A stretch of DNA of 64,000 bases from Escherichia coli (GCF_024223415.1 NZ_CP100500.1); one strand, 5' to 3'; positions 11,645 through 22,626 are shown, counted from the first letter of the stretch. The notes: generated by a model not told the origin, from the sequence alone. Numbers and translations are program-made.

Positions 11645-14600
11645 CTAATCTCTGTCACGGAAACTACCGACTGTCTGGCGGATACGGCGTTCCATTTCCG
11701 CACGGACGGCATCACCCACCATTTTTGCCAGTTCGCGCGGGTTTTGCGTGTGAACATCATGCAGGTGAATATGCAGTTCGCCAGTTAATCCCCATGGTGC
11801 CGCCTCACTCTGGCGCGGTCGGGGCGATGCGGGGGATATGGGCTGGCGCACAGCCTCAACCACCGGACGGGATGTTGCCGCCATCACTGGTGTCATTAGC
11901 GGGGAGAACGTCGGCATGACATCGTGAGTCATAACCGGTTTGATCACCGGCGGAACCACTGGCGTAATATTACCGGACAGTACCGGACGGACGACCGGAG
12001 GAATAACCGGCACATTATTCACGGACACCACCGGCTTCACGACCGGCGACACGTTCGCCGTGGTGGATATCAGCGGCGAAACACTGACAGGCGGTGGCGC
12101 TGGCAGCGGTGGCAACGAAGGCACACTGACCGACGGCACCTGCGGCAGTCTGACAGGTGGCTCACTGACACTACCCGGTAACAGGGAAGCTGCGCGGTTA
12201 AAGCGTTCCTCCTTCCACTCACCACGAACGGCCAGCGCTTCCGGCAGGTTTTTAAAGATAATATCGCCGGGACCAGCGCGTTTTTTCGCCTGTTTCGCCT
12301 CATCCAGCAGACCACCGGTGTTATCGACGATTTTGTTCAGGCGGCGCATAGTGCCGGTATTCTCCCCCGTCAGGGGTGGTTGCCCCCCTTTGGGTTTTTC
12401 GCCGTATTTTTTATCCTCGTCCTTTTTCGGCGGATTAATGACGTTAACATCCGCCAGAAGCATGGCAGCTTTCTCGTTCAGCAACTCCTTCTGTTTTAGT
12501 TCTTCCGCTTTTTTCCGGGCGCGCTCAACCGCTGACGGAATCAGCCCGAGTTTTTCCAGCACCCGGGTTAATGAGTCAATCAGCAGCGTAACCGGACCGG
12601 TCACCAGATTGCTGATAAACTCCCCGACCTTCTGCCCGAACGTCCGCCCGGCTTCCGTGCACTTGTCCAGCTCATCCTTTGTTGTGCTTACCGGCGCGAA
12701 CAAATCCACGAACCACTGCCACACACGCCCGATTGTCTGCCCGACATACTCAAACAATGGTCCCAGTGGTGCCACAGCCTCGCGCAGTGGCGTAAGCCCC
12801 TGCCACAGGCCGGACAAGAACCCGCCCACGACAGCCTTCAGCTGGTCCCAGTGCCGCCAGATAAGCACTGCCGCACCGACCAGTGTCGCCACCACAAGGC
12901 CCACCGGACTTAACAGAAAACCCAGCGCCCCGCCAAGTGCGCCCACCGCACCACTCACCATCCCCCACAGTGCGGGCAGACCTGACAGTCTGAGCGCCAG
13001 TATTCCGATACCGCGCCCCAGTGAAATCAGTGCGCCGCCAGGTGAAGTGAACGCAGCCAGCAGACCACCACGCAGCGCGCCAAGTCCCGCCTGCACACCA
13101 CGAAGCCGCCCCGCAACTACGCCCAGCAGTGCAGCAAACCGTCCGGCACCGGAGGTGATACCGACAAACAGCACGCGCCAGCCACCGATACCGCCCAGCG
13201 GACCACCGAGTACGCCGCGCAGCTGCGTCAGTAACGGCAGCGCACGACCGAGGCCGGATGTGCCGGTCAGCAGGGCAAACCCAAGACGCAGTTTTGCCAG
13301 CGGCCCCATCAACACACCAGTGGCAAGTGACAGCGCCCCCATGGCCGCAACCGCAGCCAGCAGTACACCACCGGCAATCAGCAGTTGTTTTGTCAGTTCA
13401 GGGTGCGCCTGAGCCAGCGCGGTGACTTTCGCAATAACCCGGGTGAACGACTGCGTGACAGAACGCAGCGGCCCGTCAACGAGGTCAGCGATACGGATAC
13501 GCAGTCCTTCCCATGCGCTGTTCAGTGATTTCAGGTCACCGTCCAGGTTATCAACCATAACACGGGCAGTCTGATTAAGTTCCCCGGTGGCCAGTTCAAT
13601 CTCCTGCGTAAGACGGGGAAGATTATTTTCCCCCGCCGCAGTGACAAGATTCATCAGGGAAACATAGGACTCCTGCCCGGCAATAGCCCTGAAAAAGGAG
13701 ACCTGCGCGGCATTACCGTATTTTCGGGTGGCCTGGTACAGCTCATTCAGGATATTTTCCATCCGGCGCATGTTCCCGTAAGCATCCTGCGTCTCCACGC
13801 CAAGCTCTTTCAGTGCCATTGCAGCGGCCTTCGGCGGATCAACCAGACGTGACAGACTGGCACGCAGCGCCGTACCTGCATCACTTCCACGGATCCCCAC
13901 ACTGCCAAGGACACCCGTCATGGCTGCCGCCTGTTCAAGGGACAGGCCAAGTGAAGCTGCAACCGGCCCCGTGTACTTCATGGTTTCACCCAGCGAACGG
14001 AGATCCGTATTGGTTCGTGTGAAGGTGGCGGCCAGCGTGTCACCCACGCGATCCATCTGGTCAGCGGACAGACCAAACTGTGTGAGGATATTCGAACTGA
14101 TATCGGCAGTCTGTCCCAGGTCCATCCCTGCAGCCATTGCCAGATCAAGCACGCCGGGTAGCGCCGCCTGTATGGCCTGTGGTGTGAAGCTGGCCATGGC
14201 AAGGAACGCCTGACCGCTGGCAGCATCACCGGCGGTAAACTGCGTTTCAGAGCCCAGCTTAATGGCCTGTTCGCGCAGCGCCTTAAACTGCGGACTGTTT
14301 TTGTCAATACGGGTCAGCGCCTGGACGCGCGACATCTCCTTACCAAAACTGACCGCCGGTTGCAGGAAACGTCCGGCCGCATAGCCGCCTGCCGCCGCCG
14401 TACCAACCGCCGTAAGTCCGACCGTTTTAAGTTTTCCCGCCGTCTCCTGAGCACGGGAATATTGCTGGCGTGCCTGCGTGACACGTGCCAGCGCCTGCCG
14501 TTCGCGTTCCAGCTGGTCGTTGTATTGCTGTGTTCGCCGTATGGCCTGTTGAATGGTGTTGTCACTGCCGGAAAGCGCAATACCGTGGCGCCGCAGCTCA

Positions 14601-14992
14601 CCACCCAGTTCGCGCATTCGCTGAACTTCACGCGCACGGACCTCATTGAGACGCTCAAGTTTGAGGCTCAAATCGTTCATCAGCTTTTTCTGTTTGTCAG
14701 ACAGCACGGTTCCGGCGCGCTGAATTTGCTGAAGTGCGCTTAACTGGCGTTGCGCCCTGACAATGCCGTTTCCGGCCTTGTTTGCAGCCTCGCGGGCGCG
14801 ATCAAATGAACGGGCGTGGCGTTCCAGGTTTTTGATCGCACCCTGCGTTCTCTGTATGGAGTCGCCAAGCTGGCCCATCATGCGACGGGCGTTTTCGGTG
14901 GGACGGGTCAGCCTGTCAACAGCGCTGAAGGCGACCCGTATATCAAGCGTTTTCATGCTCTGCGTTCCCGCTGCGAAGGGCCGCCCGCTCAC
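11645..14992 (-). CDS. Tail tape measure protein (P2 gpT-like), with Pro/Val-rich C-terminal repeats
   Basis: 1115-aa ORF, long helical Ala/Gly-rich regions; alternative ATG start at 14956. Confidence 0.8.
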   Translation of the reverse strand: MSGRPFAAGTQSMKTLDIRVAFSAVDRLTRPTENARRMMGQLGDSIQRTQGAIKNLERHARSFDRAREAANKAGNGIVRAQRQLSALQQIQRAGTVLSDKQKKLMNDLSLKLERLNEVRAREVQRMRELGGELRRHGIALSGSDNTIQQAIRRTQQYNDQLERERQALARVTQARQQYSRAQETAGKLKTVGLTAVGTAAAGGYAAGRFLQPAVSFGKEMSRVQALTRIDKNSPQFKALREQAIKLGSETQFTAGDAASGQAFLAMASFTPQAIQAALPGVLDLAMAAGMDLGQTADISSNILTQFGLSADQMDRVGDTLAATFTRTNTDLRSLGETMKYTGPVAASLGLSLEQAAAMTGVLGSVGIRGSDAGTALRASLSRLVDPPKAAAMALKELGVETQDAYGNMRRMENILNELYQATRKYGNAAQVSFFRAIAGQESYVSLMNLVTAAGENNLPRLTQEIELATGELNQTARVMVDNLDGDLKSLNSAWEGLRIRIADLVDGPLRSVTQSFTRVIAKVTALAQAHPELTKQLLIAGGVLLAAVAAMGALSLATGVLMGPLAKLRLGFALLTGTSGLGRALPLLTQLRGVLGGPLGGIGGWRVLFVGITSGAGRFAALLGVVAGRLRGVQAGLGALRGGLLAAFTSPGGALISLGRGIGILALRLSGLPALWGMVSGAVGALGGALGFLLSPVGLVVATLVGAAVLIWRHWDQLKAVVGGFLSGLWQGLTPLREAVAPLGPLFEYVGQTIGRVWQWFVDLFAPVSTTKDELDKCTEAGRTFGQKVGEFISNLVTGPVTLLIDSLTRVLEKLGLIPSAVERARKKAEELKQKELLNEKAAMLLADVNVINPPKKDEDKKYGEKPKGGQPPLTGENTGTMRRLNKIVDNTGGLLDEAKQAKKRAGPGDIIFKNLPEALAVRGEWKEERFNRAASLLPGSVSEPPVRLPQVPSVSVPSLPPLPAPPPVSVSPLISTTANVSPVVKPVVSVNNVPVIPPVVRPVLSGNITPVVPPVIKPVMTHDVMPTFSPLMTPVMAATSRPVVEAVRQPISPASPRPRQSEAAPWGLTGELHIHLHDVHTQNPRELAKMVGDAVRAEMERRIRQTVGSFRDRD

Positions 14993-17433: not shown

Positions 17434-17451
17434 GCCGCTGCGGTGCATGAA
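17434..17451 (-). promoter_or_regulatory. TGT-N12-ACA dyad, candidate Ogr-dependent late promoter element for the sheath operon
   Basis: tgtCTCCTGACAGCGaca, centre about 55 nt upstream of a transcript start that would give a roughly 65-nt leader to the sheath ATG. Confidence 0.35.
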
Positions 17452-17482
17452 ACCATTACAGAACGCACCAGGAGAGAACACC

Positions 17483-18574
17483 ATGAAAGAGCTGTCAGTT
17501 ACCGTTCCGTCACCGGATATCGACATCACCATCAACAACAACACACTGGCAAACCTCACAGAGCGACTCATGACGCTGACCCTGACGGATAACCGGGCCT
17601 TTGAGGCAGACCGCGTCACCCTCACCCTTGACGATACGGACGGGCAGTTACAGTTGCCACCACGTGGCGCACGCCTGAGAGTGATGATTGGCTGGCGAGG
17701 AGAATCACTGGTTAACAAGGGCACCTACGTCGTTGATGAGGTTGCGTGGGAAGGACCTCCAGATAAACTGATCATCACCGCCAGCAGCGCAGATTTTCGG
17801 GAAGAGTTCAACGTGAGGCGGGAGGTATCCTGGCACGACGTGACCGTAAAACAGGTTGTGTCAGCCATCGCTCACCGCTACGGCCTGAAGACACAGATAA
17901 GCGAAATCCTCATGGATATCGAAATTGACCACGCTGACCAGACCGAAGAGAGCGATATATCCTTCCTGACCCGCATGGCTGAAATGCTGGGTGCGATTGC
18001 CACCGTAAAAAACGGCAGCCTGTTATTCATTCTGCCGGGTGGCGGAACCGGGCCGGACGGAAGAGCCCTGCCTTCGTTCGCCATTACCCGCAGCAGCGGC
18101 GACAGTCACCGCTTTCGCATTGCTGACCGTGATGCGTATACGGGGGTCCGGGCGCACTGGCTCGATCTGAAGTTCGGGCAAAAGAAAAAAGTGAACGTGA
18201 AGCGACGCAGGGAAGCCGGGAAACAGAAACAGGAGAAGAGCAGCAGCCGGGAGGGTGATTACATGGAAGGCGCGGAAGGGAACGTCTACGTTCTGCGCAG
18301 GACTTACCAGAATGAAGAAACCGCACGACGTGCAGCTGCGGCAAAGTGGCAGGAGTTACAGCGGGGAGCAGCGGCATTCTCCATCACTCTGGCACGGGGT
18401 CGTGCCGACCTGTACCCCGAAATGCACGGCAGGGTAACAGGTTTTAAAAGCGAGGTGGACAATCAGGACTGGATTATTGCCAGGGTGGAGCACATCATAG
18501 ATGAAAGCGGCTTCACCACACAACTGGAGCTGGAAGCGAAAATCCCCGAATGGATAGCAGATTCAGGCGGATAA
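17483..18574 (+). CDS. Tail protein D (P2 gpD-like late control protein)
   Basis: ATG 17483 with GGAGAG upstream; 363 aa. Confidence 0.7.
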   Translation: MKELSVTVPSPDIDITINNNTLANLTERLMTLTLTDNRAFEADRVTLTLDDTDGQLQLPPRGARLRVMIGWRGESLVNKGTYVVDEVAWEGPPDKLIITASSADFREEFNVRREVSWHDVTVKQVVSAIAHRYGLKTQISEILMDIEIDHADQTEESDISFLTRMAEMLGAIATVKNGSLLFILPGGGTGPDGRALPSFAITRSSGDSHRFRIADRDAYTGVRAHWLDLKFGQKKKVNVKRRREAGKQKQEKSSSREGDYMEGAEGNVYVLRRTYQNEETARRAAAAKWQELQRGAAAFSITLARGRADLYPEMHGRVTGFKSEVDNQDWIIARVEHIIDESGFTTQLELEAKIPEWIADSGG

Positions 18575-18617: not shown

Positions 18618-18869
18618 ATGTTCCGTTGTCCCCTATGCGGTGCATCCGCACGTATCCGCACCAGTCGCAATGAAAATGATTCAGGCACAGTTCGCCTGAA
18701 GTACTACCAGTGCAATAACCTCGAATGCGGGATCGGCTTTACCACACTGGAGGGTTTTAACAAATTCACATCAAAACGCGCCCCGTCGCCGCAGGGTACA
18801 GAGCGGATACCGTGGGAAGATTTTCCGGGATCTCACAGGGGGAATACTCAGATTAATCTTGATATTTAA
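18618..18869 (+). CDS. ogr: Ogr/Delta-family zinc-finger late-gene activator
   Basis: 83 aa; CPLC...C(x4)C arrangement MFRCPLCGASARIRTSR...YYQCNNLECG; last gene before prophage junction. Confidence 0.75.
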   Translation: MFRCPLCGASARIRTSRNENDSGTVRLKYYQCNNLECGIGFTTLEGFNKFTSKRAPSPQGTERIPWEDFPGSHRGNTQINLDI

Positions 18870-18980
18870 GAACAATAATCAGGTTGAGAGGACATCATAA
18901 GGCAAGTAGATTAACGGCAGATACTTTCCCGCAACCACGGGCAAGTATTTAATTATCCATGATGAAATATGACCTAAATT

Positions 18981-19014
18981 GTTTTTTGCCCGCCGGAAAG
19001 CGGGCATTTTTTTA
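18981..19014 (+). terminator. Intrinsic terminator, candidate prophage attR core
   Basis: gcccgc cggaaa gcgggc hairpin flanked by T runs on both sides; same element recurs 7 more times downstream. Confidence 0.6.
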
Positions 19015-19227
19015 TTCTTTTGTGGTTATGGGGTCATCAGGAACCACGTGCAGATTATATTTTTGTTTTTTTGGCGTTCCTCCGGCAGCAACGAGTTCAT
19101 CAATAAGACACTGACACGCCTGAACATCCCGGGCATGTCTTAGTTTCACCTTTATTGATTTAACCTTATCCTCACCGGAGGAGAAATGCAGTTCAATCTC
19201 AATATCGTTTCTTCGGAACAATCTCAT
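19012..19227 (-). CDS. Hypothetical small protein (71 aa) in module M
   Basis: ATG at 19227 preceded by AGGGGG; intact only in this copy, truncated or degenerate in the other two M copies. Confidence 0.25.
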   Translation of the reverse strand: MRLFRRNDIEIELHFSSGEDKVKSIKVKLRHARDVQACQCLIDELVAAGGTPKKQKYNLHVVPDDPITTKE

Positions 19228-19398
19228 ACGCCCCCTGAATATATCAGAAATACTAGTATCGAAAAATGAGAAAACAGTTAGACAGGAGAAACATATTAAC
19301 ACAAATCATTTATACCTATAGATGAAATTATAATTTCATTCATGAATATGATAGATAACTATATTGTGAACAAAATGAAAAATGGCTAAATTAAAAAT

Positions 19399-19478
19399 GG
19401 GCATGGAGGAATGCCCGGTTATCAATATAATGTGACGTAGATCATTGTTTTGCCCGCCGGAGAGCGGGCATTTTTTTT
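19399..19478 (+). ncRNA. Candidate small RNA S1
   Basis: Promoter-like TTGTGA(19364)-N17-TAAATT(19387), about 80-nt unit with internal hairpin gggcatggaggaatgccc, ends in intrinsic terminator. Confidence 0.35.
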
Positions 19479-19678
19479 GCGCCTGCCATCGAGGCGCCTT
19501 CCCTGGCGCACACAAAGCAGCCCTGATTTTCCATGAAAACTTCAGGGTTGAGCTGCGGGCACAAAGTGAGTAGATTAGCTACGGGTACCTCCCCCTGACA
19601 ACAGGAAGGGTGTCCATTATCCATGATATACAAACGAAAAGTCTTGTTTTTTGCCCGCCGAAGCGCGGGCATTTTTTT
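19479..19678 (+). ncRNA. Candidate structured RNA U1 (about 200 nt)
   Basis: Bounded by two terminators; internal hairpins gcgcct..aggcgc, ccctga..tcaggg, ccttcc..ggaagg; 4 copies in window. Confidence 0.3.
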
Positions 19679-19723
19679 ATGCATCAGACAAGATACAGCC
19701 CACCCCAACTGACACCTGAAATA

Positions 19724-19752
19724 TTGCCGCAACAAAAAGAAACAGTTAAATT
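19724..19752 (+). promoter_or_regulatory. Sigma70-like promoter for hok1 transcript
   Basis: TTGCCG-N17-TAAATT, about 145 nt upstream of hok1 ATG. Confidence 0.4.
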
Positions 19753-19804
19753 ACGCGCGGGTGCCTTTCGGCTGATGGCCGGAGGGAAAACCTGAAGGCC
19801 GGAT

Positions 19805-20038
19805 GTGGAAAGGCCCCGGAAAACATTTCTGTTTAACCGAGGCCCTAACCGCATTACCTTGACAAGTGAAAGGTTAGCGCCTCTCCGGAAAAGGAGCAAG
19901 TGCTATGTCGCAAAAATCGCTTACGGCCATCACGTTCTGCGTGACGGCAATCCTCATCATCTGGATATTGCACGGTTCGCTGTGCGAAATACGGATGAGC
20001 TTCTGGGGAGCGGAGTTTGCGGCGTTCTTACAATGTAA
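19805..20038 (+). CDS. mok-like overlapping reading frame
   Basis: 77-codon frame overlapping hok1 in a different frame, as in hok/mok loci. Confidence 0.3.
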   Translation: MERPRKTFLFNRGPNRITLTSERLAPLRKRSKCYVAKIAYGHHVLRDGNPHHLDIARFAVRNTDELLGSGVCGVLTM

Positions 20039-20045
20039 GAAGTAA
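19905..20045 (+). CDS. Hok/Gef-family type I toxin (46 aa)
   Basis: MSQKSLTAITFCVTAILIIWILHGSLCEIRMSFWGAEFAAFLQCKK: TM helix plus SLCEI..AAFL.CK signature; AAGGAG 8 nt upstream. Confidence 0.6.
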   Translation: MSQKSLTAITFCVTAILIIWILHGSLCEIRMSFWGAEFAAFLQCKK

Positions 20046-20133
20046 GGAAACCGCGACGGGGGAGCAATCCCCCGTCAATCGGTTGCCAGGGTAAGGTCGA
20101 TAAGGCACCCTATCTCACAGACATGAACAAACA

Positions 20134-20167
20134 AACCCGCAGCATAAAAACTGCGGGTTTTCTTTTT
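20134..20167 (+). terminator. Intrinsic terminator after hok1
   Basis: cccgcag cataaaaa ctgcggg followed by ttttcttttt. Confidence 0.5.
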
Positions 20168-20571
20168 GGTGTCCTCACCGACTTGAAACAGTGATCAGAC
20201 TATAAGACAAAGCCCGCAATGTTGCGGGCTTACTCTACCTCTCGAAAATGTGGTCACTGCGTGGACATACGCTGATACAAATCCTTTATATCAATAAATT
20301 AAATCTTTGTTTTTTTCATCAACAATGATTTAACCTTATCCTCACCGGAGGAGAAATGCAGTTCAATCTCAATATCGTTTCTGTGGAACAGCCTCATAAG
20401 ACAACCTCCTGAATTCATCAGAAACACAGTCAACTGAAAACCAGAAAGCAGACAAACAGTGGACACACATTAATACAAATCATTTATACCTATAGATGAA
20501 ATTGCAGTTTCATCTATAACATGACAGGTAACAATATTGTGAAAAAACTCAAAACTCGTTAGATTAAAGAC

Positions 20572-20651
20572 GGACAGAGCAATGCTACTTTATCAATAAC
20601 ATGTAACCTGTACTTCCTTATTTTGCCCGCCGAAGCACGGGCATTTTTTTT
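20572..20651 (+). ncRNA. Candidate small RNA S2
   Basis: TTGTGA(20537)-N17-TAGATT(20560), terminator at 20625-20651; central region differs from S1. Confidence 0.3.
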
Positions 20652-20849
20652 GCGCCTGCCATCGAGGCGCCTTCCCTGGCGCACACAAAGCAGCCCTGAT
20701 TTTCCATGAAAACTTCAGGGTTGAGCCAAAAGCACAAAGACAGTAGATTAACCACGGGTGCCTTCCACCTGACAACAGGAAGGGTGTCCAGTATCAATGA
20801 CAGACAACTCACATTGCTGTTTTGCCCGCCGGAAAGCGGGCATTTTTTT
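20652..20849 (+). ncRNA. Candidate structured RNA U2
   Basis: Copy of U unit ending in terminator 20821-20849. Confidence 0.3.
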
Positions 20850-21219
20850 ATTCTTTTGTGGTTATTGGGTCATCAGGAACAACATGCAGATTATGCTTTG
20901 ATTTTTTTGGTGTTATTACAGCAGCAACGAGTTTATTAATAAGACACTGACATGCCTGAACATCCCTGACATATCATAATATCACTTTATTTTTTTAGCT
21001 TGTCCTTTCTGGAGCAGAAATATCTCAACATCGTTTCTGTGGAACAACCTCATTTGCCCTTGAATGTATCATAAATATCAGCATCGGAAAACCAACAGCA
21101 ATACAGAAGAAACATGTTAATGCAAATCACTTATACCTATAGATGAAATTACAGTTTTGTTCATAAATATGATAAGTAACTATATTGTGAATAAAATGAA
21201 AACTAGCTAAATTAAACGT

Positions 21220-21300
21220 GGGCATGGTGGAATGCCTCGTAATCAATAATACATGATCCGTACTTCCTTGTTTTGCCCGCCGGAAAGCGGGCATTTTTTT
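21220..21300 (+). ncRNA. Candidate small RNA S3
   Basis: TTGTGA(21185)-N17-TAAATT(21208), hairpin gggcatggtggaatgcc, terminator to 21300. Confidence 0.3.
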
Positions 21301-21497
21301 GGCGGTTACCATCGCCTCACCTTCCTGGTTCACATGAAGCAACCCTGATTTTCCATGAAAACTTCAGGGTTGAGACAAAAGCACAAAGACAGTAGATTAA
21401 CCACGGGTACCTTCCACCTGACAACAGGAAGGCTGTCCAGTATCAATGACAGACAACTCACATTGCTGTTTTGCCCGCCGGAAAGCGGGCTTTTTTT
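21301..21497 (+). ncRNA. Candidate structured RNA U3
   Basis: Copy of U unit, terminator 21469-21497. Confidence 0.3.
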
Positions 21498-21698
21498 GGC
21501 AGTTATCATAGCCGCACCTTCCTGGCACATATGAAGCAACCCTGATTTTCCATGAAAACTTCAGGGTTGAGACAAAAGCACAAAAACAGTAGATTAACCA
21601 CGGGTGCCTGCCACCTGACAACAGGAAGGGTGTCCATTATCCATGATATACAAACGAAAAGTCTTGTCTTTTGCCCGCCAAAGCGCGGGCATTTTTTT
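21498..21698 (+). ncRNA. Candidate structured RNA U4 (hok-associated subtype)
   Basis: Copy of U unit with the same 3' end as U1, terminator 21671-21698. Confidence 0.3.
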
Positions 21699-21909
21699 AT
21701 GCATCAGACAAGATACAGCCCACCCCAACTGACACCTGAAATATTGCCGCAACAAAAAGAAACGGGTGCCTTTCGGCTGATGGCCGGAGGGAAAACCTGA
21801 AGGCCGGATGTGGAAAGGCCCCGGAAAACATCTGTGTTTAACCGAGGCCTGACCCTTCCTACCGTGACAAGTGGAAGGTTAGCGCCTCTTTGTAAAAGGA
21901 GCAAGCGCT

Positions 21910-22050
21910 ATACCGCAAAAAACGATTATTGTTGGCATTTTATGCCTGACAATAACCCTGGTCATCTGGATGGTCCACGATTCGTTATGTGAATTCAGCT
22001 TTGATATCTGGGGAGCGCGTTTTGCGGCGTTCTTGCAGTGTAAACCGTAA
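21910..22050 (+). pseudogene. Hok-family toxin remnant: start codon ATA, promoter -10 deleted
   Basis: Frame encodes PQKTIIVGILCLTITLVIWMVHDSLCEFSFDIWGARFAAFLQCKP after AAGGAG, but first codon is ATA and an in-frame TAG lies 10 codons upstream. Confidence 0.55.
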
Positions 22051-22200
22051 GAAACCGCAGCGGGGGAGAAATTCCCCGCTATCCGGTTGTTGGGGTGGGC
22101 CGATATGGCGCCCTTTCCCTGTAGAGACAAAACAAAAAACCAGATTTGCCCGCCATTGAGAGGGCTTTTTTGTCACCCTCACCAGTGAGGGCATCATCAT

Positions 22201-22428
22201 TCAGAGGCGCGTAAGCCACCCGGCGTTAACATCCTGCCTGTCAACCCTGGCCGCAGAGTCTGAACGGCAGGTACCGGAAGGAGTACCAAAAACATCCCTG
22301 ACAAGTTCCGCCACCTTCCCGATATCATCAGGTGTCACATTCCTCACCTCGGCAGTGATCCGTGGCGTACCATCATCGTTAACAAGAGTGGCTTTAAAGC
22401 TGGTGCGAAGGGAAAACAACATCAACAT
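22201..22428 (-). CDS. Hypothetical protein (75 aa)
   Basis: ORF only; no recognisable motif. Confidence 0.2.
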   Translation of the reverse strand: MLMLFSLRTSFKATLVNDDGTPRITAEVRNVTPDDIGKVAELVRDVFGTPSGTCRSDSAARVDRQDVNAGWLTRL

Positions 22429-22626
22429 CCCCTCCCTTTGGTTCGTTGCACTGACGGCACGACACCATCAGGAAAAAGAAAAGCCCACAACGTCAGTATT
22501 GTGGACTTTTTTCTTCAAAGATGGACATTATCTGGACACATGAAAATAAAATCCATTTATTTTCATATAGTTAAGTACCATGCAAAAGCGCCCGCAGGCG
22601 CTTTTTAGATTCAGAAAAATTAGGTA

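Follow-up and report, generated by a model that had tools for sequence, protein, structure and literature searches.

The closest described relatives of the locus analysed here are the hok/sok type I toxin-antitoxin loci, which are known from plasmid R1, from the Escherichia coli chromosome (hokA-E) and from phages (MokW-like or Hok/Gef copies). In phages P88 and Chuche, a hok promoter lies directly after ogr, and in related phages the interval from ogr to attP carries one or two hok/sok loci. We analysed a stretch of 64,000 nucleotides of E. coli DNA (NZ_CP100500.1; hereafter the window, numbered from its first letter) in which an array of repeated modules lies between ogr and serS, directly after the ogr gene of a P2-like prophage. 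Positions 18884-22598 very probably constitute the accessory (moron) region of this prophage, reaching from ogr to the attachment site, rather than a host locus or a phage-host junction. The region is composed of one intact hok locus (H1), one decayed hok locus (H2), eight paralogous minigenes (R0, S1-S3 and U1-U4) and three interleaved copies of a gene that we call M. H1 is a member of hok/sok and H2 a decayed member. The eight minigenes share the promoter and terminator type of hok/sok, and the U units also share the first ~34 nucleotides of its leader; however, they differ in being only 115-130 bp long and in lacking mok, hok and sok. To our knowledge, a run of such promoter-leader-terminator derivatives of hok has not been described before.

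Three further groups of systems invite comparison. The E. coli chromosome contains tandem repeats of type I toxin-antitoxin loci, namely LDR (ldr/rdl), QUAD (ibs/sib) and zorO-orzO. These are likewise head-to-tail small-RNA/toxin paralogues whose copy number varies between strains. Whereas they are chromosomal and keep a toxin open reading frame (ORF) and an antisense RNA, most copies here are toxin-less and phage-carried. The prophage small RNAs DicF, IpeX and AgvB/AsxR similarly combine, in an accessory position, a promoter with an RNA of ~60-100 nucleotides that has a 5' hairpin, a single-stranded stretch and a U-tailed terminator. The minigenes have no sequence or covariance-model match to them, form eight paralogues in one array and are known from sequence alone. 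Finally, phages of the P2 family integrate through an attP with arm-type repeats for the integrase Int, and the P2 site locI lies beside the cyaR terminator. As in P2, int lies beside attL, ogr lies on the attR side, TGGACA arm repeats are present and a short core sits in an intrinsic terminator that the phage rebuilds. In contrast to P2, the core of this phage, AAAAGCGCCCGCAGG, belongs to the serS terminator, a secondary site is the rraA/zapB terminator, and the cargo between ogr and the core amounts to ~3.7 kb.

The attachment site in the serS terminator

The prophage is apparently complete, with all backbone modules annotated. In the near-identical genome NZ_CM144243, it spans from the integrase beside dmsA to ogr. 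Two features of the window define its right end:

22522 to 22538, + strand: Int arm-type direct repeats TGGACAttatcTGGACA of the P arm of the resident phage; two occurrences of the pattern in 64 kb against 0.02 expected
22584 to 22598, no strand: attR core AAAAGCGCCCGCAGG, a 15-bp direct repeat of attL; it restores the terminator of serS, with the hairpin at 22588-22601 and the T-run as far as 22606

The P2-type integrase inserts into the loop of the serS terminator. The attL site, which adjoins int (L001 7671-8666), reads gacaaaaaaaGCGCCCGCAGG joined to agatttaacggtac (...aaaaaaaGCGCCCGCAGG followed by agatttaacgg) and contains half of the serS terminator. On the other side, window positions 22584-22606 read gcaaaaGCGCCCGCAGG joined to cgctttttagattcag (cgcttttt after the junction) and directly adjoin the serS stop codon. 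The empty site in K-12, a serS-dmsA interval of 238 bp, contains gacaaaaaaagcgcccgcaggcgctttttagattcag; this is the serS terminator and equals the left part of attL plus the right part of attR exactly. Because the empty site is thus restored, the inserted element reaches 22598 and takes in the whole array. The arm repeats agree with this placement. TGGWCA-N5-TGGACA is found at only three sites in 49.5 kb (0.01 expected): at attL beside int, at 22522-22538 and at a relic at 20251-20267 that is described below. TGGACA-N5-TGGACA itself occurs at L001 7682 and window 22522, with a chance expectation of 0.01-0.02. The predicted attP would join int to ...catgcaaaaGCGCCCGCAGG (...gttaagtaccatgcaaaaGCGCCCGCAGGagatttaacggtac...).

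In strain SCU-115, the same phage lies between rraA and zapB with a 2.2-kb array. Its attL is aaaaGGCACCGCAAGG joined to agatttaacgg and its attR is gcaaaaGCGCCCGCAGG joined to tgcctttttt, and the K-12 empty site aaaGGCACCGCAAGGTGCCtttttt again equals attL-left plus attR-right exactly. IMG/VR and metagenomes yielded no excised attP junction, and we infer activity of the phage from these two integration sites only. Both integration sites sit in the loop of an intrinsic terminator hairpin, that of serS and the bidirectional one of rraA/zapB, where the core has mismatches (window 22584-22606; L004 6503-6535; L132 4985-5005; L146 2810-2845). The half-hairpin that rebuilds the serS terminator comes from the phage.

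A preliminary description of this DNA had arrived at a different boundary. It placed the phage-host junction at T1, the first copy of a terminator that recurs throughout the array, and took the array for host DNA bordering the prophage, the shared terminator for the attachment core and the modules for stacked remnants of integrations. This explanation draws on the facts that all modules end in one hairpin, that the sequence to the right of T1 indeed matches that to the right of T5 (18984-19152 and 20820-20988, 87% identical), that the array terminator shares GCCCGC-GG with the true core GCGCCCGCAGG, and that the array contains one relic attachment arm. However, attL carries the serS half-hairpin instead of the array terminator TTTGCCCGCCGGAAAGCGGGC, and the serS-dmsA interval of prophage-free K-12 has no array. 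The true attR and its arm sites lie at 22522-22598, so that the attR core at 22584-22598 is found 3.6 kb further right than T1. Moreover, the ogr-R0-T1-M1 junction is identical in related prophages at four other sites (rraA/zapB, copA, ihfA and a tRNA gene), and the relic arm adjoins gene M instead of a terminator. T1 is therefore not the junction, since the same ogr-R0-T1-M1 order and array lie inside prophages elsewhere. The preliminary description had itself named, as contrary findings, an attL lacking this core and the same array in strains without a P2-like prophage at this locus; both were found. Taken together, a host array at the prophage edge is almost certainly not the explanation. 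The description was right that integration occurs in a 3' terminator, in as much as the site is a terminator loop, but this terminator is that of serS or rraA/zapB and not that of the array. The phage DNA said to replace a U unit to the left of T1 is the paralogous unit R0 (18884-19013), a ninth unit with the same promoter and terminator, and the accessory region extends to 22598 and not merely to 22200.

With the accessory region assigned to the prophage, the boundary in ~25 lysogens with the phage at serS lies 3.6 kb further right than is apparent; in this 3.6-kb stretch RefSeq annotates two genes only, M1 and one hok. Of 5426 complete E. coli genomes, 5073 have an uninterrupted serS-dmsA site. 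The ~350 genomes in which it is interrupted far outnumber the roughly 25 with this array, which suggests that the serS terminator is a hot spot for integration in general. Strain JNEC-KY203 carries another P2-like prophage at this serS core, arranged ogr-hok-hok-attR and with none of the units.

Repeat modules and their relation to hok

The modules between ogr and the attachment arm are the following:

18884 to 19013, + strand: minigene R0; -35 TTGAGA at 18884, 17-bp spacer, -10 TAGATT ending at 18912; predicted RNA of ~95 nucleotides (18919-19013), T1 at 18987-19006, fold -27.7 kcal/mol, z -3.4
19012 to 19227, - strand: M1, intact orphan ORF of 71 amino acids (WP_001236182.1; phrog_14142, E 4.9e-12, profile positions 72-127)
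19322 to 19339, no strand: palindrome ATGAAATT-AT-AATTTCAT between the M1 start and the S1 promoter
19364 to 19477, + strand: minigene S1; -35 TTGTGA, 17-bp spacer, -10 TAAATT (19387), predicted RNA 19399-19477, T2 at 19451-19470
19548 to 19677, + strand: minigene U1; -35 TTGAGC, -10 TAGATT (19571), predicted RNA 19583-19677, T3 at 19652-19671
19724 to 20170, + strand: H1, intact hok/sok-type locus; promoter TTGCCG-17-TAAATT, hok coding sequence 19905-20045, terminator 20133-20160
20314 to 20397, - strand: M2, 5' part of M cut by a nested insertion, 89% identical to M1
20537 to 20650, + strand: minigene S2; promoter and T4 (20624-20643, one mismatch) kept, 5' hairpin decayed, fold -14.3 kcal/mol, z -0.96
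20721 to 20848, + strand: minigene U2; -10 at 20744, predicted RNA 20756-20848, T5 at 20823-20842
20849 to 21060, - strand: M3, degenerate copy of M; reading frame not intact
21185 to 21299, + strand: minigene S3; -10 at 21208, predicted RNA 21220-21299, T6 at 21274-21293
21370 to 21497, + strand: minigene U3; TTGAGA-17-TAGATT, predicted RNA 21405-21497, T7 at 21473-21490
21567 to 21697, + strand: minigene U4; TTGAGA-17-TAGATT, predicted RNA 21602-21697, T8 at 21672-21691
21699 to 22172, + strand: H2, decayed hok/sok locus; compared with H1, -10 box deleted, hok start ATG changed to ATA, no intact ORF

The repeats are real and far beyond chance. The pattern GCCCGC-N6-GCGGGC, with at most two mismatches, occurs at 15 sites in the window against 4.5 +/- 2.3 expected, and 10 of the 15 lie within 18988-22165, every one on the + strand. 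Between 18.5 and 22.7 kb, 17 terminator-like sites stand against 5.0 +/- 2.3 expected. The family terminator (TTTGCCCGCC..GGGC(A)T-run) is present in nine co-oriented copies, each closing a module; these start at 18988, 19452, 19653, 20625, 20824, 21275, 21473 and 21673 for the eight intact copies, and at 22148 for a degenerate one (T9, 22148-22165), which is the own terminator of H2. The tenth site on the + strand, at 20212, is a terminator of another type. The inventory of modules given in the preliminary description (three M, three S, four U and two hok) is confirmed, and its count of eight terminators holds for the intact copies but omits the degenerate ninth.

The eight units of the window were aligned with three from strain CS5L. 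In this alignment of eleven, the mean column identity is only 70%. The TTG of the -35 box (TTGAGA or TTGTGA) and the terminator are invariant, the spacer measures 17 bp, the -10 box is TA(G/A)ATTA, and AUC(A/C)AU is nearly invariant shortly after the 5' hairpin (exceptions are one AUUAAU and one AUCAGU). Predicted transcripts measure 79-96 nucleotides, and the terminators have 6-8 T residues, both values being derived from consensus matches only. Single-sequence folding yields a 5' hairpin, a single-stranded A/U-rich stretch and then a U-rich segment with a hairpin and a U-tail. The arms of the 5' hairpin are built from three unrelated sequences (AGAUACUU/AAGUAUUU in R0, GGGUGCCUU/AGGGUGUCC in U, GGGCAU/AUGCCC in S). 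In the consensus fold of the MAFFT alignment, the terminator is invariant and the 5' hairpins of the subtypes are out of register.

An inverted repeat, CCCTGATTTTCCATGAAAACTTCAGGG, precedes every U promoter, abutting the -35 box with its centre near -50 (segments 19500-19546, 20673-20719, 21322-21368 and 21519-21565). A regulator might bind there, or the repeat might form a structure in read-through RNA; upstream of it, U1 and U2 have one more hairpin, GCGCCTgccatcgAGGCGC.

H1 has the features of a complete hok locus. Its mRNA begins with GGGUGCCUU at 19759, and as read from the sequence GGGTGCCTT (19759-19767) is perfectly complementary to the 3' element AAGGCACCC (20102-20110). Its Hok ORF matches phrog_251 (E 8.5e-22), is named a Hok/Gef family protein in RefSeq, and scores 30.7 bits (E 2.4e-7) with the NCBIfam HokA model, whose cut-off is 89. 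With the full Rfam sok model (RF01794), H1 and H2 reach 46.2 bits (E 2.4e-8) and 48.1 bits (E 7.4e-9), respectively, against a gathering score of 59.

Anchored on the -10 box, units U2-U4 are 54-63% identical, ungapped over 76 nucleotides, to four hok promoter/leader regions, and the more diverged U1 is 38-47% identical to them; in 4000 random segments of the window, identity averaged 25% and peaked at 43-47%. Over its first 34 transcribed nucleotides, U2 shares 62-74% identity with hok leaders, and the shared part includes GGGUGCCUU at +1. With nhmmer, a unit profile matches both hok promoters of the unit-free JNEC-KY203 prophage (E 1.8e-5 and 2.3e-4), and the terminator of the first hok locus in that prophage is TTTGCCCGCaatatGCGGGCtttttt (TTTGCCCGCaatatGCGGGC). 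As promoter, leader and terminator resemble those of hok, the units appear to be hok loci reduced to a promoter and a terminator, with the leader hairpin in addition in the U units, from which mok, hok and sok were lost. The units contain no Hok-like ORF in their 115-130 bp and so lack the toxin ORF and antisense RNA that define hok/sok; they are hok derivatives and not members of the family. Two results limit how far this derivation is shown. The 3' body of the units does not resemble the hok 3' untranslated region significantly, and a deletion model is for this reason shown only for promoter, leader and terminator. Moreover, in whole-unit local alignments to H1 and H2 under stringent scoring, scores stay at the null maximum; the homology to hok is clear only with the -10-anchored alignment and further hok loci.

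Assembly and distribution of the array

The array occurs in alleles with 4 to 8 units: a form R0-M-S-U-U, the SCU-115 form, a form in contigs L144 and L145 (R0-M-S2-U2-M3-S3-U3-U4-H2) and the form of the window. Repeat spacings of 1170-1174 bp indicate a large internal duplication, and in the SCU-115 form 1173 bp between U1 and U2 are absent. The boundaries of this duplication fall in the conserved segments upstream of promoters and in terminators, as unequal homologous crossing-over would produce. The modular look is best explained by the promoter and the terminator, the best-conserved parts of the paralogues, having served as substrates for such crossing-over. Cassettes similar to integron attC elements were considered and set aside, as homologous recombination between paralogues suffices.

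One step in this history involved a second phage, of which an attachment arm remains:

20205 to 20313, + strand: relic right arm of a second, Chuche/P88-type P2-like phage; terminator 20210-20231, arm repeats TGGTCActgcgTGGACA at 20251-20267, core remnant to ...catcaacaa at 20313

This segment is near-identical (few substitutions, single-base indels) to the attP of Chuche and to a natural attR beside flk, up to catcaacaa. From there, the window continues as the 5' part of M (tgatttaacc...), where the Chuche attP has ggatttttaacc. Positions 19144-20313 are thus a 1.17-kb insertion into gene M that ends in a relic attachment arm. Metagenome contig L144 has an uninterrupted M, with a 5' part matching M2, directly after R0-T1. 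We hypothesise that the M gene of the resident phage offered a pseudo-site at which a Chuche-type phage carrying ogr-R0-M1-S1-U1-H1 inserted, and that homologous recombination between the two phage backbones then deleted everything between them and left the extra 1.17 kb. Nested integration followed by collapse would be the simplest history, and the alleles from before and after it are both observed. The repeated integration and decay proposed in the preliminary description comes down to this one nested integration, which lies inside M and not at a terminator; the rest is duplication and unequal crossing-over.

The locus would offer a worked example of how cargo grows in P2-like phages, with hok/sok duplicated, stripped to promoter, leader and terminator and reshuffled by unequal crossing-over. 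It would also be a case of a second phage integrating into the cargo of a first and both collapsing into a hybrid, with the alleles before and after the event present in public data.

A U unit is found in only 30 of the 5426 genomes, and the R0-M1-S1 block in exactly those 30; beyond these, the distribution comprises a handful of contigs in IMG/VR and metagenomes. R0 is unchanged beside ogr in the prophages at the four other sites, the order ogr-R0-M-S-U-U is seen at copA, at ihfA (with hicAB) and beside a tRNA gene, and the identical ogr-R0-M1 junction recurs in IMG/VR prophage contigs. A search of a phage collection gave matches to the hok parts of the array only, and none to the units or to M. 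In related phages, the stretch from the units or hok to attP is a site of cargo exchange (L133 3484-4084; L010 2050-2992; L143 469-1454). It holds hicAB in the phage at ihfA, com and a DNA methyltransferase gene in Chuche and, in a contig at the tRNA site, two ORFs of 202 and 126 amino acids that truncate a hok locus.

A degenerate pattern of the terminator, searched in 100,044 species genomes, was too generic, returning at least 120 unrelated single terminators. Among the matches was a conserved intergenic element of Rahnella (L056 6600-6710, L076 310-420 and others) with TATAAT, a hairpin GUGCUCACCCCCGAGGGAGUAC, an A/U-rich stretch and nearly the same terminator. It has only generic small-RNA features in common with the units, and we do not regard it as related.

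Candidate functions and neighbouring genes

Each minigene would be transcribed constitutively in the lysogen from its hok-type sigma-70 promoter into an RNA of ~80-95 nucleotides. This RNA is predicted to start with a 5' hairpin, to continue with a single-stranded stretch containing UAUC(A/C)AU and to end in a U-rich region, a hairpin and a U-tail such as Hfq binds. A 5' hairpin, single-stranded stretch, U-rich segment, hairpin and U-tail make up the anatomy of Hfq-type small RNAs. By consensus match, the units possess what is expected of genes for such RNAs, namely an own promoter, a terminator with U-rich flanks and an RNA within ~50-300 nucleotides. That the minigene RNAs are functional base-pairing regulators rather than inert relics appears to us to be about an even bet. 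In line with a function, promoter, hairpin, motif and terminator are kept across three diverged subtypes, and the R0-M-S-U-U core is kept in every allele. If expressed, the minigenes would be an unannotated small-RNA family traceable to a toxin mRNA, which would bear on the origin of regulatory RNAs.

A number of observations weigh against such a function. The unit RNAs show no complementarity above shuffled controls to the translation-initiation regions of the prophage, the S RNA shows none to the M mRNA, and a k-mer search for targets in the window returned chance-level matches only. Several copies are decaying (the hairpin of S2, the promoter and start codon of H2, M2 and M3). The distribution of the units is narrow, and the alleles are so closely related (90-100% identical) that their conservation says little about selection. 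Rfam has no match at the gathering score between 17000 and 24000, and at a permissive threshold gives sub-threshold sok and terminator-driven noise only. A full-text literature search found no mention of the terminator sequence and nothing relevant on P2-like prophages, small RNAs and ogr or on prophages at serS/dmsA.

The units may instead be non-functional deletion derivatives of hok, multiplied by unequal crossing-over, tolerated as harmless and of no consequence whether transcribed or not, a reading to which we assign a serious, if tentative, chance. Their derivation from hok, the decay in four modules (S2, H2, M2 and M3), the lack of a target in prophage initiation regions, M mRNA or window, and the restriction to 30 genomes and a handful of contigs are all consistent with inert debris. 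Chromosomal hok loci are, furthermore, commonly found inactivated. Yet debris would hardly be expected to keep, in three subtypes, a near-consensus promoter with a 17-bp spacer, a terminator with U-rich flanks, differently built 5' hairpins and UAUC(A/C)AU, nor to retain the R0-M-S-U-U core in each allele and each integration context that was observed.

If the minigenes do act as regulators, a more specific but doubtful proposal is that the eight constitute a phage small-RNA family assembled from both ends of the hok mRNA, with strong hok promoters driving their transcription in the lysogen. Such RNAs could be Hfq-type regulators of host or rival-phage mRNAs acting through the single-stranded UAUC(A/C)AU region. 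Alternatively, they could mimic the hok fold-back element in trans and keep hok mRNAs silent, whether the phage's own or those of a competing plasmid or phage. Fold-back mimicry, if true, would place a type I toxin under a second level of control that does not depend on sok.

The C/A-rich stretch of U2 and U3 could also act as a sponge that titrates GcvB, similar to AgvB in enterohaemorrhagic E. coli. The middle of U2/U3 is predicted to pair with the G/U-rich region of GcvB at -22.8 kcal/mol (z about -2.2; matched or surpassed by 2% of shuffled sequences), and weak Rfam matches to AgvB of 17-23 bits were obtained, mostly over the terminator. However, GcvB was a single partner picked by eye and eight RNAs were tested, so that the p-value is lost on correction, the other units gave nothing, and the AgvB matches are far below the gathering score of 56. 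We consider this role very unlikely.

Another candidate is a type I toxin-antitoxin pair, comparable to tisB/istR or zorO/orzO, with the M ORF and the divergent S RNA as its two partners. M and S are divergent, have a palindrome between them and always occur together. Against this, M is not hydrophobic and resembles the C-terminal half of a soluble protein of 128 amino acids, and the S RNA shows the chance-level pairing with M mRNA noted above; such a pair is highly improbable. M1 aligns to the C-terminal half of a family of 128-133 amino acids whose members lie at the termini of P2/HP1-like prophages and in P4-like satellites. Close relatives of M1 occur in E. coli only, distant homologues are P0009, P0010 and P0011, and a 57-amino-acid form is present in a P4-like satellite. 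M has no Pfam, NCBIfam or PADLOC match, and the genomic context of its 128-amino-acid relative contains no similar RNA units. In the M2 copy, a palindrome at 20491-20518 with perfect 14-bp arms (TATAGATGAAATTG/CAGTTTCATCTATA) likewise lies between the M start and the S promoter. The M-S palindrome looks like an operator.

Three other assignments of the units were discarded on inspection of the sequence. The units bear no resemblance to the E. coli I-E or I-F CRISPR repeat; an array of the type III ToxI kind is disfavoured by a unit size of ~200 bp and the lack of toxN; and small ORFs within the units would read through the terminator and lack a ribosome-binding site.

The array is flanked by the following features:

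17447 to 18574: tail gene D of the P2-like prophage
18618 to 18869, + strand: ogr, late transcription activator and last backbone gene before the accessory region (ORF; phrog_603, E 7.6e-14; Ogr/Delta-like zinc finger protein in RefSeq)
22201 to 22428, - strand: ORF of 75 amino acids, WP_029490443.1 in CS5L, annotated in some genomes only
22479 to 22510, no strand: bidirectional terminator-like hairpin between the 75-amino-acid ORF and the attachment arm, from the terminator scan
right of the 75-amino-acid ORF, - strand: serS, rarA and lolA

The 75-amino-acid ORF gave no match to a family in the searches made and is kept beside the attachment arm in the serS, zapB and copA variants of the phage. 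For three genomes, RefSeq lists the tail tape-measure gene of the backbone (11645-14992, - strand; L001 35142-37337) as an incomplete pseudogene. Since the window has one intact ORF of 1115 amino acids there, the pseudogene call is probably an annotation artefact.

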